This document shows positions 2-15,354 of a stretch of 64,000 bases of DNA, piece after piece. Position 1 is the first letter of the stretch, and each line of letters begins with the position of its first letter. The notes below the pieces were generated by a model. The model saw only the letters and a program-made list of their open reading frames with translations. It did no database searches and was not told the DNA's origin. Origin of the DNA: an uncultured Chlamydiae bacterium (GTDB lineage: Bacteria > Chlamydiota > Chlamydiia > Chlamydiales > Parachlamydiaceae). The position numbers were made by a program, and so were the translations under genes. The DNA is taken from positions 2,336,001 through 2,400,000 of the forward strand of contig CAVWGN010000001.1 in assembly GCA_963754655.1 (NCBI GenBank), in the 5' to 3' direction.

Positions 2-817
2 CAAGTTCCAGCTAATGTTCTAGCCGATTCCGCTTTCGTTAAAAAAGAATTGAAGCAATATCCTGAAGCAGATGATCTCTATGCCCGAGCAATTGCCAAG
101 GATGAATCTCAAGTTCCAGCTGATGTTCTAGATCAGGCAGCTTACATTAAAATGCAATTGAAGCAATATTCTGAAGCAGATGCTCTCTATGCCCAAGCTA
201 TTGCCAAGTATGGGGAACAAGTTCCAGCTTATATTCTAGCCAATTCCGCTTTCGTTAAAAAAGAATTTAAGCAATACCCTGAAGCAGATGCTCTCTATGC
301 TCAAGCAATTGCCAAGTATGGGCCTCAAGTTCCAGCTTCTGTTCTAGTCCTGTCCGCTTCCGTTAAAAAAGAATTGAAGCAATACCCTGAAGCAGATGCT
401 CTCTATGCCCAAGCTATTGCCAAGTATGGGGAACAAGTTCCAGCTTATATTCTAGCCCAGTCCGCTTTCGTTAAAAAAGAATTGAAGCAATACCCTGAAG
501 CAGATGCTCTCTGTGCCCAAGCAATTGCCAAGTATGGGCCTCAAGTTCCAGCTTCTGTTCTAGTCCTGTCCGCTTCCGTTAAAAAAGAATTGAAGCAATA
601 CCCTGAAGCAGATGCTCTCTGTGCCCAAGCAATTGCCAAGCTTGGACCGCAAGTTCCAGCTTATATTCTAGCCAATTCCGCTTTCGTTAAACAAGAATTG
701 AAGCAATACCCTGAAGCAGATGCACTTTATGCCCAAGCAATCGCCAAGTATGGGGACCAAGTTCCAGCTTATGTTTTAGAGGCTGCAGCTCAAGTTAAAC
801 TTCAATTAAAAGAATAA
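2..817 (+). CDS. C-terminal part of tandem TPR-like (36-aa repeat) effector paralogue 1, 5' end outside the window
   Basis: Open frame from base 2 made of 108-bp repeats (YPEADALYAQAIAKYGPQVPAYILANSAFVKKELKQ); ends AQVKLQLKE like the downstream paralogues. Confidence 0.9.
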   Translation, partial: QVPANVLADSAFVKKELKQYPEADDLYARAIAKDESQVPADVLDQAAYIKMQLKQYSEADALYAQAIAKYGEQVPAYILANSAFVKKEFKQYPEADALYAQAIAKYGPQVPASVLVLSASVKKELKQYPEADALYAQAIAKYGEQVPAYILAQSAFVKKELKQYPEADALCAQAIAKYGPQVPASVLVLSASVKKELKQYPEADALCAQAIAKLGPQVPAYILANSAFVKQELKQYPEADALYAQAIAKYGDQVPAYVLEAAAQVKLQLKE

Positions 818-891
818 CCCAAGAAGATCATCTTGTAATATGACAACCCTTTAGGCCTTAGGCCATACCATTAACAAGCTAAGAGATGGGC

Positions 892-928
892 TTAGACTAC
901 GCGGCGACTGAAGCGTCGTGTAGCCTAA
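892..928. repeat. Intergenic hairpin, repeated at about 9319-9355 and 13774-13810
   Basis: TTAGACTACGCGGCG-actgaag-CGTCGTGTAGCCTAA imperfect stem, identical in the three short spacers of the array. Confidence 0.6.
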
Positions 929-1114
929 ACTGAAATTCAAAATGAAGTAGTTATTAAGAAATTTTAATCAAAAGCCCCTGCCATCTTTCAAGCTTAGACT
1001 TAAATCAGTCTCAATGAGCACATACTTGTGTAAATAAGTATTGAATGTATAAATTAAAAACAAAAATAGTTATAATAATTAAAAGATATTTATAATAATT
1101 AAAGATAAATCATA

Positions 1115-11997: not shown

Positions 11998-13698
11998 ATG
12001 AATATTCAAAGTTCGAGTCTTTCCTTATGTACAGGTGTGGGACACAAGCGAAACTCCACTTGTATTCAACCCTTCCAACCTCCTCGTAAACGAATCAAAC
12101 AAGAGATTAAGCCTCAGACAATCTCCTCTACTTTTCCATTTTGGCAAGAATTATCAAATTATCGGGATATTATTTTAAAAATTGGTTCTTATCTTAGAAT
12201 TAAAGATTTACTCCATCTAGAAGCCACTCATCAAGCACAAAGCAATTATACTAAGGACTTTTGGATTCAAAAGAAAAAGAATTCTGTACCCAATTGGGCC
12301 ATGTGTGAAAAAGAGCCTCATCAAGATAAATGGGACGTCTGTTTAAATTCAGCACTTAAACGCTCTGTCAAAGAATTAGCAGCAAATTCCGCAGGGGTTA
12401 ATGTGTCATTAGCTCAAAATATCTTTCTTTACTCTCAAGGACTTTTCAAAAGATTTCCCTTGTATGGATGTTATGTTAAAAGCGAAATAGCTAAATTAGC
12501 TAGTAGCTCCCCTAATATCTTAAATGAATTAAAATCACAAAAAGATGAAATTTACCAGTTAGCTTTACAAAAAAAGGGAGGAGAATTAATTCTTCAAACT
12601 CTTTTTGAAATCCACAATTATCTTTCTCAACCCAATGCACGATCTTATTATTTAATTAGCCAATATGCAACTGAGGCAATTAATCAAAAAGCTTATTGCA
12701 TTAGTCTATTTGCTTTAAAACTATTCTATCAAAAAATTGCACACGCAAATTTAAATAATGATCAACGAAATCTATTAGAAGATTTAAGTCTACAGGCTGC
12801 TAAAAAAGGATATTTTTTGGCGTTAGATCTTTTGCTCTCTCACTATTCTCCGGCAGACGTCCAAAAGTTAATTGATCAAGGCTTGTGTTATGCTCCAGTG
12901 CTAGCCAAGCAGGCTGTTCAGTTTTTCTCTACACAGCAATGGGGACAAGCTGACGCGCTTTTAGTGGAGGCCATCGCTAAATATGGGAATAAAGTTCCAG
13001 CTGAGGTTTTAGATAATGCAGCTTACATTAAAACGCACTTGAAGCAATATTCTGAAGCAGATGCTCTCTATGCCCAAGCAATTGTCAAGTATGGGCCTCA
13101 AGTTCCAGCTCTTGTTCTAGGCAATGCCGCTTTCGTTAAAATAGAATTGAAGCAATACCCTGAAGTAGATGCTCTCTGTGCCCAAGCAATTGCCAAGTAT
13201 GGGCCTCAAGTTCCAGCTTATATTCTAGACAATGCCGCTTTCGTTAAAAAAGAATTGAAGCAATATTTTGAAGCAGATGCTCTCTATGCCCAAGCTATTG
13301 CCAAGTATGAACCTCAAGTTCCAGCTAATGTTCTAGCCAATTCCGCTTTCGTTAAAAAAGAATTGAAGCAATACCCTGAAGCAGATGCTCTCTGTGCCCA
13401 AGCAATTGCCAAGTATGGGGAACAAGTTCCAGCTTCTGTTCTATGCAATTCCGCTTTCGTTAAAAAAGAATTGAAGCAATACTCTGAAGCAGATGCTCTC
13501 TGTGCCCAAGCAATTGCCAAGTATGGGGAACAAGTTCCAGCTTACGTTCTAACCCATTATGCTTTCGTTAAAAAAGAATTGAAGCAATACCCTGAAGCAG
13601 ATGCACTTTATGCCCAAGCAATCGCCAAGTATGGGCATCAAGTTCCAGCTGATGTTTTAGAGGCTTCAGCTCAAGTTAAACTTCAATTAAAAGAATAA
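11998..13698 (+). CDS. NLS/F-box-like/TPR-repeat protein, paralogue 5 (7 repeats)
   Basis: 566 = 314+7x36. Confidence 0.88.
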   Translation: MNIQSSSLSLCTGVGHKRNSTCIQPFQPPRKRIKQEIKPQTISSTFPFWQELSNYRDIILKIGSYLRIKDLLHLEATHQAQSNYTKDFWIQKKKNSVPNWAMCEKEPHQDKWDVCLNSALKRSVKELAANSAGVNVSLAQNIFLYSQGLFKRFPLYGCYVKSEIAKLASSSPNILNELKSQKDEIYQLALQKKGGELILQTLFEIHNYLSQPNARSYYLISQYATEAINQKAYCISLFALKLFYQKIAHANLNNDQRNLLEDLSLQAAKKGYFLALDLLLSHYSPADVQKLIDQGLCYAPVLAKQAVQFFSTQQWGQADALLVEAIAKYGNKVPAEVLDNAAYIKTHLKQYSEADALYAQAIVKYGPQVPALVLGNAAFVKIELKQYPEVDALCAQAIAKYGPQVPAYILDNAAFVKKELKQYFEADALYAQAIAKYEPQVPANVLANSAFVKKELKQYPEADALCAQAIAKYGEQVPASVLCNSAFVKKELKQYSEADALCAQAIAKYGEQVPAYVLTHYAFVKKELKQYPEADALYAQAIAKYGHQVPADVLEASAQVKLQLKE

Positions 13699-13977
13699 CC
13701 CACAGAAGATCATCTTGTAATATGACAACCCTTTAGGCCTTAGGCCATACCATTAACAAGCTAAGAGATGGGCTTAGACTACGCGGCGACTGAAGCGTCG
13801 TGTAGCCTAAACTGAAATTCAAAATGAAGTAGTTATTAAGAAATTTTAATCAAAAGCCCCTGGCATCTTTCAAGTTGGGACTTAAACCAGTCTCAATAAG
13901 CACGTACTCGTGTAAACAAGTATTGAATATATTAATTAAAAACAAAGATAGTTATAATAAATTAAAGGTAAATCATA

Positions 13978-15354
13978 ATGAATATTGAAAGTTCGAGTCT
14001 TTCCTTATGTACAGGTGTGGGACACAAGCGAAACTCCACTTGTATTCAACCCTTCCAACCTCCTCGTAAACGAATCAAACAAGAGATTAAGCCTCAGACA
14101 ATCTCCTCTACTTTTCCATTTTGGCAAGAATTATCAAATTATCGGGATATTATTTTAAAAATTGGTTCTTATCTTAGAATTAAAGATTTACTCCATCTAG
14201 AAGCCACTCATCAAGTACAAAGCAATTATACTAAGGACTTTTGGATTCAAAAGAAAAAGAATTCTGTACCCAATTGGGCCATGTGTGAAAAAGAGCCCCA
14301 TCAAGATAAATGGGACGTCTGTTTAAATTCAGCACTTAAACGCTCTGTCAAAGAATTAGCAGCAAATTCATTGCAGACTAATGTGCCCTTAGCTCAAAAT
14401 ATCTTTCTTTACTCTCAAGGACTTTTCAAAAGATTTCCTTTGTATGGATGTTATGTTGAAAGCGAAATAGCTAAATTAGCTAGTAGCTCCCCTAATATCT
14501 TAAATGAATTACAATCACAAAAAAATGAGATTTACCATTTAGCTTTACAAAAAAAAGGAGGAGAATTAATTCTTCAAACTCTTTTTGAAATACACAATTA
14601 TCTTTCTCAACCCAATGCACGATCTTATTATTTAATTAGCCAATACGCCACTGAGGCAATTAATCAAAAAGCTTATTGCATTAGCCTATTTGCTTTAAAA
14701 CTATTCTATCAAAAAGCTTCACACGCAGATTTAAATACTGAGCAACAAAATCTATTAGAGGATTTGAGTCTACAGGCTGCTAAAAAAGGATATTTTTTGG
14801 CTTTAGATCTTTTGCTCTCTCACTATTCTCCAGCAGACGTCCAAAAGTTAATTGATCAAGGCTTGTGTTATGCTCCAGTGCTAGCCAAGCATGCTCTTTC
14901 ATTTTTCTCTACACAGCAATGGGGAAAAGCGGACGCGCTTTTAGTGGAGGCCATCGCTAAATATGGGAATAAAGTTCCAGCTCGTGTTCTAGACACTGCC
15001 GCTCACATTAAAATAGAATTGAAGCAATATTCTGAAGCAGATGCTCTCTATGCTAAAGCAATTGCCGAGTATGGGGACCTAGTTCCAGCTACGACTCTAG
15101 AAAATTACACTTTCGTTAAAGGAGAATTGAAGCAATACCCTGAAGCAGATGCTCTCTGTACCCAAGCAATTGCCCAGTATGGGGACCACGTTACAACTAG
15201 TGCTTTAAACAATGCTGCTTTCGTTAAAAAAGAATTGAAGCAATATTGTGAAGCAGATGCTCTCTATACCCAAGCAATTGCCAAGTATGGGAACCGAGTT
15301 CCAGCTGATGTTTTAGAGGCTGCAGCTCAAGTTAAACTTCAATTAAAAGAATAA
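13978..15354 (+). CDS. NLS/F-box-like/TPR-repeat protein, paralogue 6 (4 repeats, the most divergent)
   Basis: 458 = 314+4x36. Confidence 0.88.
   Translation: MNIESSSLSLCTGVGHKRNSTCIQPFQPPRKRIKQEIKPQTISSTFPFWQELSNYRDIILKIGSYLRIKDLLHLEATHQVQSNYTKDFWIQKKKNSVPNWAMCEKEPHQDKWDVCLNSALKRSVKELAANSLQTNVPLAQNIFLYSQGLFKRFPLYGCYVESEIAKLASSSPNILNELQSQKNEIYHLALQKKGGELILQTLFEIHNYLSQPNARSYYLISQYATEAINQKAYCISLFALKLFYQKASHADLNTEQQNLLEDLSLQAAKKGYFLALDLLLSHYSPADVQKLIDQGLCYAPVLAKHALSFFSTQQWGKADALLVEAIAKYGNKVPARVLDTAAHIKIELKQYSEADALYAKAIAEYGDLVPATTLENYTFVKGELKQYPEADALCTQAIAQYGDHVTTSALNNAAFVKKELKQYCEADALYTQAIAKYGNRVPADVLEAAAQVKLQLKE

Follow-up and report, generated by a model that had tools for sequence, protein, structure and literature searches.

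Environmental chlamydiae carry large F-box/tetratricopeptide repeat (TPR) and BTB/leucine-rich repeat (LRR) protein families. Expansions of genes in which F-box, BTB or U-box modules are joined to LRRs or TPRs, NEX2 of Neochlamydia included, are described in Parachlamydiaceae (Domman et al. 2014, PMC4209131; here and below, cited papers are followed in the portions of their text available). TPRs are most variable at positions 2, 5, 9, 12, 13, 33, and 34, which belong to the repeat's concave side; HOP binds peptides via positions 2, 5, 6, 9, 12, and 13, and position 6, often an Asn, touches the backbone of the ligand in both HOP and PEX5 (Magliery & Regan 2005, PMC1261162). In OGT a lumenal ladder of Asn residues makes bidentate backbone contacts to extended, disordered substrates, and neighboring residues tune selectivity (PMC11145291; bioRxiv 2020.12.22.423982). 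Shuffled TPR exons under diversifying selection are found in the NB-ARC-TPR genes of the brown alga Ectocarpus (Zambounis et al. 2012, PMC3341825). Here we describe a family of TPR proteins encoded by tandem genes at one end of a 64,000-nucleotide stretch (the window) of the genome of an uncultured Chlamydiae bacterium (contig CAVWGN010000001.1, positions 2,336,001 to 2,400,000). We document the architecture of the proteins, the fold and register of their repeats, an excess of amino-acid change at specific sites of the repeat, the replication of this excess in a second lineage, and homology of the N-terminal region to F-boxes at the profile level.

The window holds five complete paralogs (p5 to p9) and the 3' end of a sixth (p4), all on the + strand and within the first 15.4 kb. 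As found by a search of the 3.16 Mb, two-contig assembly with the N-terminal 321 amino acids (aa), they belong to an array of nine tandem paralogs, located at 2326093-2351354 on contig C1 of the organism's own assembly. The array starts 9.9 kb upstream of the window, and four of the nine genes begin upstream. The N-terminal domains of the nine copies are 87-100% identical to that of p9, and none of the nine open reading frames (ORFs) has internal stops. An earlier note on this DNA had put the length of the proteins at 314+36n aa. The rule is borne out by the ORF calls (422, 818, 638, 566, and 458 aa, n being 3, 14, 9, 7, and 4, respectively); the value of n given for the 5'-open p4, 8 or more, is corrected to 15 when the full gene is read upstream. 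Arrays of 108 bp units are detected by Tandem Repeats Finder in all six window genes, with 76-87% matches.

Repeat units and their variable columns

Each array starts with a degenerate N-cap unit, conserved between paralogs, continues with 2-14 variable units, and ends with a 16-aa C-cap, which is a half-unit made up by helix A only. The nine paralogs hold 79 variable units in all, 78 of which are distinct. The words formed by unit positions 2, 5, and 6, listed in the earlier note for three paralogs (numbered 3, 4, and 5 there), match the unit tables in every instance. The final D-EA, taken in the same note for a variable word, is not one, because it corresponds to the C-cap half-unit; EA is found in 9/9 genes, and position 2 is a D in eight of them.

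Column entropies, calculated from the 78 distinct units, are highest at column 5 (2.60 bits), followed by columns 2 (2.42), 12 (1.98), 6 (1.76), 18 (1.58), 33 (1.57), 13 (1.47), 7 (1.29), and 9 (1.29). The six columns to which variation had been assigned all vary, and all rank among the top nine; the proposal that 2, 5, and 6 vary more than 9, 12, and 13 holds in part, position 6 being less variable than 12, and columns 18, 33, and 7, which also vary, had not been listed. Position 6 is an Asn in 54/78 distinct units. Scaffold residues are nearly fixed, A8 being found in 76, A20 in 74, and A27 in 75 of the 78 units, and the same is true for helix-B residues E19 and D21 (77/78 each) and K30 (74/78).

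Amino-acid change in the groove columns

To count changes, the 78 distinct units were joined in a minimum spanning tree, whose 77 edges carry 462 nucleotide changes; omega is the rate of non-synonymous (N) change relative to the global rate of synonymous (S) change. Columns 2, 5, 6, 9, 12, and 13, from here on the groove columns, collect 153.6 N and 12.4 S changes (omega ~2.5), the other 30 columns 212 N and 84 S changes (omega 0.78). The N:S ratios of the two sets differ significantly (odds ratio 5.1, P = 2e-8, Fisher's test), and the six columns account for 42% of the non-synonymous changes vs. 18% expected (binomial P = 6e-26). Values are higher for columns 2, 5, and 6 alone (108.3 N, 9.7 S, omega ~3.7): with a non-synonymous rate 3.7 times the global synonymous rate, synonymous sites are not as variable as these three columns, an outcome that the earlier note had named as one that would speak against it. 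In line with the tree, the pooled Nei-Gojobori estimate of dN/dS amounts to 1.31-1.40 for the groove columns, compared with 0.60 for the remaining 30 and 0.38 for helix B. The excess in the groove columns is confirmed as real, statistically strong, and far beyond chance. It reads as the result of diversifying (positive) selection on the putative peptide groove.

The N-terminal 298 codons of the nine paralogs give a dN/dS of 0.29 at a dS of 0.158, and the genes are therefore maintained. The dS among units is 0.19, which puts the age of the repeats close to that of the gene copies.

A diversity-generating retroelement, which would act by adenine mutagenesis, was considered and rejected. The codon of the invariant Lys-11, AAA in the consensus repeat, features no change on the 77 tree edges, and the A-rich codons 15 and 16 feature only 3 and 1 changes. 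No reverse transcriptase was found among the three intergenic ORFs scanned in the array.

The same columns vary in other lineages

The groove signal recurs independently in a second genus. Genome G006, from another genus (g4) of the same family, has its own array genes (L002 and L006), distant relatives of those in the window, made up by units in the same 36-residue register and with a helix B different from that of the window family (LGEKKKAGEYSDKAIAAYGENVP). In these two genes the six columns with the highest entropy are exactly 2, 12, 13, 5, 9, and 6. On the G006 unit tree the six columns have an N:S ratio of 55.5:1.5 vs. 27:25 for the rest (odds ratio 26, P = 2e-8) and an omega of 3.6 vs. 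0.36, and they take up 67% of the amino-acid changes. Asn occupies position 6 in 11/21 G006 units.

Seven further family proteins were monitored, each with 4-8 scorable units; 12 had been inspected, and five were dropped because they had fewer than four units keeping at least 5/7 anchor residues. Their mean normalized column entropy correlates with that of the window family (Spearman 0.72, P = 1e-6), and position 6 is an Asn in half of their units (20/40).

TPR fold, register, and groove geometry

Pfam TPR models recognize the longer window proteins, the 818-aa paralog scoring 67.9 bits with TPR_12 (cut-off 30.1) and 59.8 bits with TPR_10 (cut-off 27.5), the 566-aa paralog 32.9 bits with TPR_10 and 30.2 bits with TPR_12. 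The 422-aa and 458-aa paralogs stay below the Pfam TPR cut-offs (best scores 18.1 and 28.1 bits). The unit spans 36 residues (108 bp), not the canonical 34, the extra V35 and P36 residing in the inter-unit loop; it is a TPR length variant, as found in other long TPR-like repeats.

The p8 array was modeled by AlphaFold2 with local confidence (pLDDT) values above 90; in the model, helix A covers positions 1-13 of each unit and helix B positions 17-34, and the units stack into a superhelix. Foldseek matches this model to the TPR domain of OGT (1w3b, E 1.5e-8), and to the consensus TPR designs 9qhc_A (root-mean-square deviation 3.6 A over 267 columns, TM score 0.76) and 8chy (TM score 0.77). Searches of PDB sequences with a single p8 array gave nothing at E <= 0.01, and with p6 only weak matches to the CHIP TPRs (E 0.018); a multi-unit profile is needed. 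A profile of three-unit segments aligns to the solved CTPR-rv4 (7obi_A) at E 7.1e-6 and without gaps over positions 2-34, and the numbering used in the earlier note is therefore the canonical TPR numbering. The identification of the unit as a TPR is upheld by the Pfam scores above cut-off, the superhelix matches, the one-to-one alignment with CTPR-rv4, and the A8/A20/A27 register.

The variable columns correspond to the canonical ligand positions of the concave face, as had been proposed; the register, the literature (PMC1261162), and the geometry of the helix all point to this assignment. On a helical wheel the six columns fit a 120-degree arc of helix A, which is true of only 5 of the 1716 possible six-position subsets.

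N-terminal half of the proteins

According to models and profiles, the proteins consist, in order, of a disordered N-terminus with a basic cluster resembling a nuclear localization signal (NLS), a three-helix module resembling a divergent F-box, a linker in the form of an alpha-solenoid, and a capped superhelix of 3-15 units. The NLS-like and F-box-like modules are absent from the earlier note, and are likely to set the function of the family.

The N-terminal 334 residues were modeled from 125 sequences with a mean pLDDT of 83.7. Residues 1-45 have no predicted structure, pLDDT being below 50 at residues 7-29, and the mid-domain is modeled as all-alpha. The PPRKRIK stretch matches the pattern K[KR]x[KR], which is that of the classical NLS. 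This pattern is found in the 45 residues preceding the F-box region in 49/113 homologs vs. 16/603 control windows.

Several lines of sequence evidence connect the region to F-boxes. Pfam F-box and F-box-like models match 17 and 12, respectively, of 83 homologs at E <= 0.01. The F-box-like match of one relative (L004), at residues 60-99, is aligned to residues 46-89 of the window family. A profile of the family region run against the PDB returns F-box proteins in 13/24 rows, though individually weak (best E 0.037). By hhalign, the family region is similar to a set of 12 F-box segments (10 of the 20 places matched by Pfam F-box models in the organism's own genome, plus two F-box-looking segments from genome G004) with a probability of 95.8% and E 7.5e-9. 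Taken at the profile level, the evidence for homology to F-boxes is strong. Since the F-box of this family is invisible to Pfam, the number of ubiquitin-related effectors in these genomes is probably underestimated.

Some relatives feature variants of the N-terminal half. In a 619-aa protein (P0006, locus L003, G023:C3:78530-82216) the F-box-like and solenoid domain is found by the profile twice in tandem, and there is almost no TPR array. The interval G004:C49:2944-7885 (L012/L015/L017) carries at least three short ORFs of 137-176 aa with textbook F-box sequences (IKQLPDELLLHIFSFLQAFDLLEVELTCHQWKNL), recognized by the family-region profile at E ~1e-9, and a fourth copy with an in-frame stop.

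Shuffling of units and the code question

For 64 of the 79 units the nearest DNA neighbor resides in another gene, often at a different index, and units have therefore been shuffled between paralogs. The residues at columns 9, 10, 12, and 13 change together, forming cassettes of the FVKKE or the YIKMQ type, and columns 5 and 7 are linked to each other (mutual information 0.96 bit vs. 0.18 in shuffles). Among 66 unit pairs that are 1-3 residues apart, 13 differ solely at the six groove columns. Positions 2, 5, and 6 form 36 distinct words and positions 5 and 6 form 19 distinct pairs, AN, DN, and NN accounting for 45 of 79. A restricted alphabet of recurrent words was considered and discarded: Y-AN is seen 8 times vs. 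~7.8 expected from independent column frequencies. The backbones of units sharing the frequent words YAN, YNN, and NAN are about as diverged as those of random pairs (median 0.11-0.13 vs. 0.11).

The earlier note held that each gene spells a different ordered surface. That surfaces differ between paralogs is supported; no readable code is found. A TALE- or PPR-like code, in which one unit corresponds to one target residue, is not supported by the chance rate of the words, the co-variation of cassettes, or the 13/66 pairs. The proposal that the arrays read nucleic acids is also disfavored, because the groove is net neutral to acidic (-6 to +1 in the six groove columns, -3 to +5 over the arrays).

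A stricter form of peptide reading was considered as well, according to which the arrays would be modular readers in which the ladder of Asn-6 clamps the backbone, residues 2, 5, 9, 12, and 13 read 2-3 side chains per unit, the order of units spells the target, and shuffling re-programs which, possibly nuclear, host proteins are delivered to the ubiquitin system. We regard this as quite unlikely. If true, it would be the peptide counterpart of TALE logic and a scaffold for designed binders, and, in case binding proves modular, its units would serve well as building blocks in the engineering of peptide binders.

Distribution of the family

The N-terminal domain is larger in membership, and less annotated, than expected. 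A profile of the domain recovers 217 cluster representatives at E <= 0.001 among 1.84 billion proteins, few of them named, either as hypothetical proteins (two, of 'Chlamydiales bacterium STE3' and 'Parachlamydiaceae bacterium') or by the source name 'Tfp pilus assembly protein PilF' (two). In a word-based search with the N-terminal 320 aa, covering 5.8 billion proteins with matches restricted to proteins of 251-802 aa, only the copies of the organism's own genome were found (5/5 matches). The pattern of distribution is patchy: the family is present in 4/41 relatives, in none of three genomes of the same genus, and in 4/150 genomes of the order. Two distant paralogs of the N-terminal domain map in the same genome 1.3 Mb from the array, at C1:1006879-1007397 (L025) and 1010445-1011065 (L024), with E values between 1e-14 and 1e-17; the open frames that hold them span 735 and 737 aa.

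The source is taken as an environmental chlamydia-like bacterium. The genes neighboring the array include marker families of chlamydiae, encoding PknD (PRK13184, 950 bits, cut-off 839), V-type ATPase subunits, and a double UvrA of 1901 aa with two full UvrA-like halves, a form typical of chlamydiae. A homolog of the type III export-gate protein SctV is present in the genome.

Organization of the locus

The positions of genes, protein modules, and other features are given in Table 1. The interval between p5 and p6 is the place where the array is interrupted, by a transposase gene of the IS481 family and by additional ORFs; a tandem repeat made up by two copies of an 82-bp sequence is found in the same interval. 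The two consecutive ORFs downstream of the transposase gene have no family matches, and may be one broken gene.

A region of ~200 bp is conserved upstream of all five complete window genes, and ends in a 20-bp tandem repeat; in the upstream region of p9 one 20-bp copy is deleted, and no second copy is found. The 20-bp tandem repeat may be a promoter or operator element setting copy-specific expression. The distal parts of the spacers are of two types, one carrying a GC-rich inverted repeat (GGCTTAGACTACGCGGCGACTGAAGCGTCGTGTAGCCTAA), the other being an unrelated AT-rich stretch; the proximal ~200 bp are common to all five spacers. Neither promoter predictions (52 vs. 44.5 +/- 7.1) nor terminator predictions (13 vs. 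13.3 +/- 4.4) exceed the numbers obtained with shuffled sequences.

Elsewhere, the window is rich in mobile elements. A second transposase gene of the IS481 family is accompanied by two ORFs with identical IS1182/IS5-like scores, which are probably identical copies of an insertion sequence (IS). A 321-aa LRR ORF bears a weak likeness to LRR type III effectors and internalins, its score with the XopAC-family model (E 4.6e-13) being far below cut-off; it is another candidate eukaryote-like repeat protein.

Table 1. Features of the locus, with positions numbered from the first nucleotide of the window
Feature	Position	Strand	Remarks
p4, 3' end	2..817	+	5'-open in the window; complete gene of 854 aa with 15 units, beginning 1.7 kb before the window
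Distal spacer parts, type 1	818-1130, 9244-9560, 13699-13993		GC-rich inverted repeat
20-bp tandem repeat equivalents before p5, p6, and p7	1062-1116, 6734-6775, 9491-9534	+	immediately upstream of start codons
p5, 422 aa	1115..2383	+	N-terminal domain followed by 2 variable units between N-cap unit and C-cap half-unit
p5-p6 gap	2384-6786		interrupted by the IS481-family transposase gene and ORFs at 4649-5993
82-bp tandem repeat (x2)	2679-2844		in the p5-p6 gap
IS481-family transposase gene	2928..4061	+	rve 70.2 bits, LZ_Tnp_IS481 36.9 bits; in the p5-p6 gap; not a family member
Consecutive ORFs	4649-5407, 5478-5993		in the p5-p6 gap
Distal spacer parts, type 2	6480-6802, 11700-12013		AT-rich
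p6, 818 aa, 14 units	6787..9243	+	
p7, 638 aa, 9 units	9545..11461	+	
20-bp tandem repeat AAAGATAGTTATAATAAnTA, ~2.2 copies	11944..11987	+	TATAAT-like words; directly 5' of the p8 start codon
p8, 566 aa, 7 units	11998..13698	+	protein chosen for modeling
NLS-like basic cluster PPRKRIK, p8 residues 28-34	12079..12099	+	within the disordered N-terminus
Divergent F-box-like module, p8 residues 51-95	12148..12282	+	predicted helices 47-53, 56-64, 68-77, 82-94; hhalign
All-alpha solenoid linker, p8 residues 109-298	12322..12891	+	from the model; continues as the TPR array
Degenerate N-cap TPR unit, p8 residues 299-334	12892..12999	+	conserved between paralogs
Six variable 36-aa units, p8 residues 335-550	13000..13647	+	2/5/6 words E-DN, L-GN, Y-DN, N-AN, S-CN, Y-TH
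C-cap half-unit of p8 ADVLEASAQVKLQLKE	13648..13695	+	helix A only
p9 upstream region, single 20-bp copy	near 13950		one copy deleted
p9, 458 aa, 4 units	13978..15354	+	most diverged repeats, 76% matches
Double UvrA	25953-31655		
Second IS481-family transposase gene; two IS1182/IS5-like ORFs	33450-34601, 34886-36010, 55802-56926		
LRR ORF, 321 aa	46809-47771		

Functional interpretation

The nine genes are probably best explained as a recently expanded family of eukaryote-like host-interaction proteins, i.e. F-box-like TPR effectors with a diversified peptide groove. The protein would be exported into the host cell, probably an amoeba, where the lumen of the TPR superhelix would grip a host protein at an extended, disordered stretch. 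Asn-6, conserved in most of the successive units, would bind the backbone of the peptide, in the manner of OGT and other TPRs, and the hypervariable residues 2, 5, 9, 12, and 13 (and 33) would select side chains, hence the target. The F-box-like module would couple the captured protein to the host Skp1-cullin-F-box (SCF) ubiquitin ligase, possibly in the nucleus. Unit duplication and deletion, recombination between paralogs, and positive selection may have generated the differences in unit number, unit order, and groove residues seen among paralogs, and the family would thereby cover several targets or target variants.

Several observations weigh against this explanation. Pfam F-box and F-box-like models leave the window proteins unmatched, both over the full length at E <= 1 and over the N-terminal 298 aa at E <= 10, and none of the 20 Pfam F-box matches found elsewhere in the genome falls within the array. 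With the whole N-terminal domain model as query, Foldseek returned no match at E <= 0.001 and no F-box structure, and the wide search by VIA-align returned no F-box structure either, its best match (Z 7.8) being TPR-like and within the background for helical models. A Leu-Pro pair at the start of the first helix matters for the contact with Skp1 in canonical F-boxes. Where the first F-box sequence of the hhalign alignment has L-P, the window protein has N-Y; N-Y is found in all nine paralogs, L-P is kept in the L002 and L004 relatives, and SCF recruitment may be lost or altered because of this replacement. As for the groove, its assignment to the concave face rests on register, literature, and helix geometry rather than on measured accessibility, and the estimates of selection come from a minimum spanning tree and pooled counts that ignore recombination and multiple hits, not from a likelihood site model. 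Variation outside the groove is substantial, columns 18 and 33 featuring 30 N and 0 S, and 20 N and 6 S changes on the tree, respectively. At the whole-gene level, purifying and not positive selection is reported for related chlamydial families in the available text of Domman et al. (2014, PMC4209131). Finally, it is by inference only that the proteins are secreted, enter the nucleus, bind Skp1, have peptides as ligands, and differ in their targets.

Because of the N-Y substitution, the main rival explanation retains the architecture and the diversification of the groove and drops SCF recruitment: the F-box-like module would be degenerate, and the proteins would act as stoichiometric binders, decoys, or scaffolds, perhaps on nuclear targets. 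The occurrence of N-Y in all nine paralogs and the lack of Pfam F-box matches even at E <= 10 fit this explanation, as does the purifying selection on the N-terminal domain, which must have some role. It is nonetheless rather unlikely, given the strong profile-level homology, the 17/83 relatives that keep a Pfam-detectable F-box, and the conservation of the module across the nine copies, which fits retained docking. That the proteins are not secreted, and serve inside the bacterium as TPR scaffolds of the pilus or outer-membrane assembly or chaperone type, seems very unlikely: TPR proteins are common in bacterial assembly machines, the secretion of the family is only a deduction, and two relatives bear the PilF name, which is automatic, but neither an F-box-like module nor an NLS-like cluster has an expected role inside a bacterium. 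Nor would a housekeeping protein be expected to be patchy and lineage-specific (4/41 relatives, 4/150 order genomes, 0/3 in the same genus), and to come in nine tandem copies with a positively selected groove.

The pattern could also be neutral, the groove being made up by exposed, unconstrained residues that drift, concerted evolution homogenizing the rest of the unit, and the copies being redundant and serving gene dosage. The exclusively purifying selection obtained by whole-gene analyses of related families speaks for this; units recombine freely between genes, and omega estimates are approximate. Yet amino-acid change in the six columns, or in the three most affected, runs ahead of the synonymous rate by factors of 2.5-3.7 here and 3.6 in G006 instead of ~1, lineages whose scaffolds differ vary at the same six columns, and all nine ORFs are intact; helix-B residues E19, D21, and K30, assumed to be solvent-exposed, are nearly invariant. 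We give neutrality very little credit. Least of all do we believe in a reader of DNA or RNA of the TALE/PPR kind, contacting one base per unit via positions 2, 5, and 6. It would account for near-identical tandem units with few hypervariable residues, for position 5/6 words rich in N, D, T, and S and limited in number, and for the NLS-like motif, but arrays are net neutral and groove columns acidic to neutral, the units have the fold and register of TPRs that bind peptides, hypervariable residues are arranged on a face of a helix rather than in a base-contacting loop, and in only 13/66 close pairs of units are the differences confined to the six positions.

Comparison with known systems

The F-box/TPR class is already known, and the window family reads as an unannotated addition to the expansions of environmental chlamydiae. 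Full-text searches gave no paper dealing with selection at specific sites of chlamydial TPR effectors; members of this family may be counted in the supplementary family lists of Domman et al. Since scaffolds are near-identical, selection stands out at the concave-face positions. The groove signal points to where specificity lies, and the nine paralogs are natural variants for target hunting.

As in the expansions of the NEX2 type, the setting is an environmental chlamydia, the architecture is an analogous one of N-terminal F-box-type module and C-terminal TPRs, tandem copies are lineage-specific and vary in repeat number, and the proteins are presumed effectors of host ubiquitination. Most NEX2 members, as far as described in the available text, have a DUF294 nucleotidyltransferase-like domain at a mid-protein location; DUF294 is not found in window proteins at E <= 1, and is not among the 25 families listed for 83 homologs. 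The window family differs further in its F-box, which is below Pfam detection, and in its near-identical 36-residue units with a site-specific excess of change. Lacking DUF294 and escaping Pfam F-box models, it is filed apart from NEX2, a separation made by description.

With the TPRs of HOP (TPR1 and TPR2A), PEX5, and the CTPR designs, the window units share the A8/A20/A27 register, hypervariable positions 2, 5, 9, 12, 13, and 33, and an Asn-rich position 6. They differ from canonical TPRs in length, a V-P being added in the loop, and in number, up to 15 units per protein; in addition, variation is observed between repeats of one family in one genome, not across all TPRs.

TALE, PPR, and PUF proteins read nucleic acids via basic surfaces, following a demonstrated one-unit-one-base rule. 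Similarly to these proteins, window arrays consist of tandem helical repeats with few specificity positions per unit, and the number and order of units differ between paralogs. The window surface is, in contrast, neutral to acidic, the fold is that of TPRs, and units differ at many other positions.

The NB-ARC-TPR genes of Ectocarpus resemble the window family in having shuffled TPR cassettes, in the selection ascribed to ligand specificity, and in being clustered and subject to fast turnover. They encode eukaryotic candidate immune receptors, with exon-encoded units of 42 residues; the window genes are bacterial, effector-like, and intronless, and their units are shuffled by recombination between tandem paralogs.

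The best mechanistic analog is the TPR superhelix of OGT, which is long, and in which Asn recurs in successive repeats; we take the ladder Asn of OGT to sit at TPR position 6. The window family has no catalytic domain, no sequence relationship to OGT beyond the TPR, and an Asn in 54/78 units only. By analogy with OGT, window arrays may bind peptides in the lumen of the superhelix.

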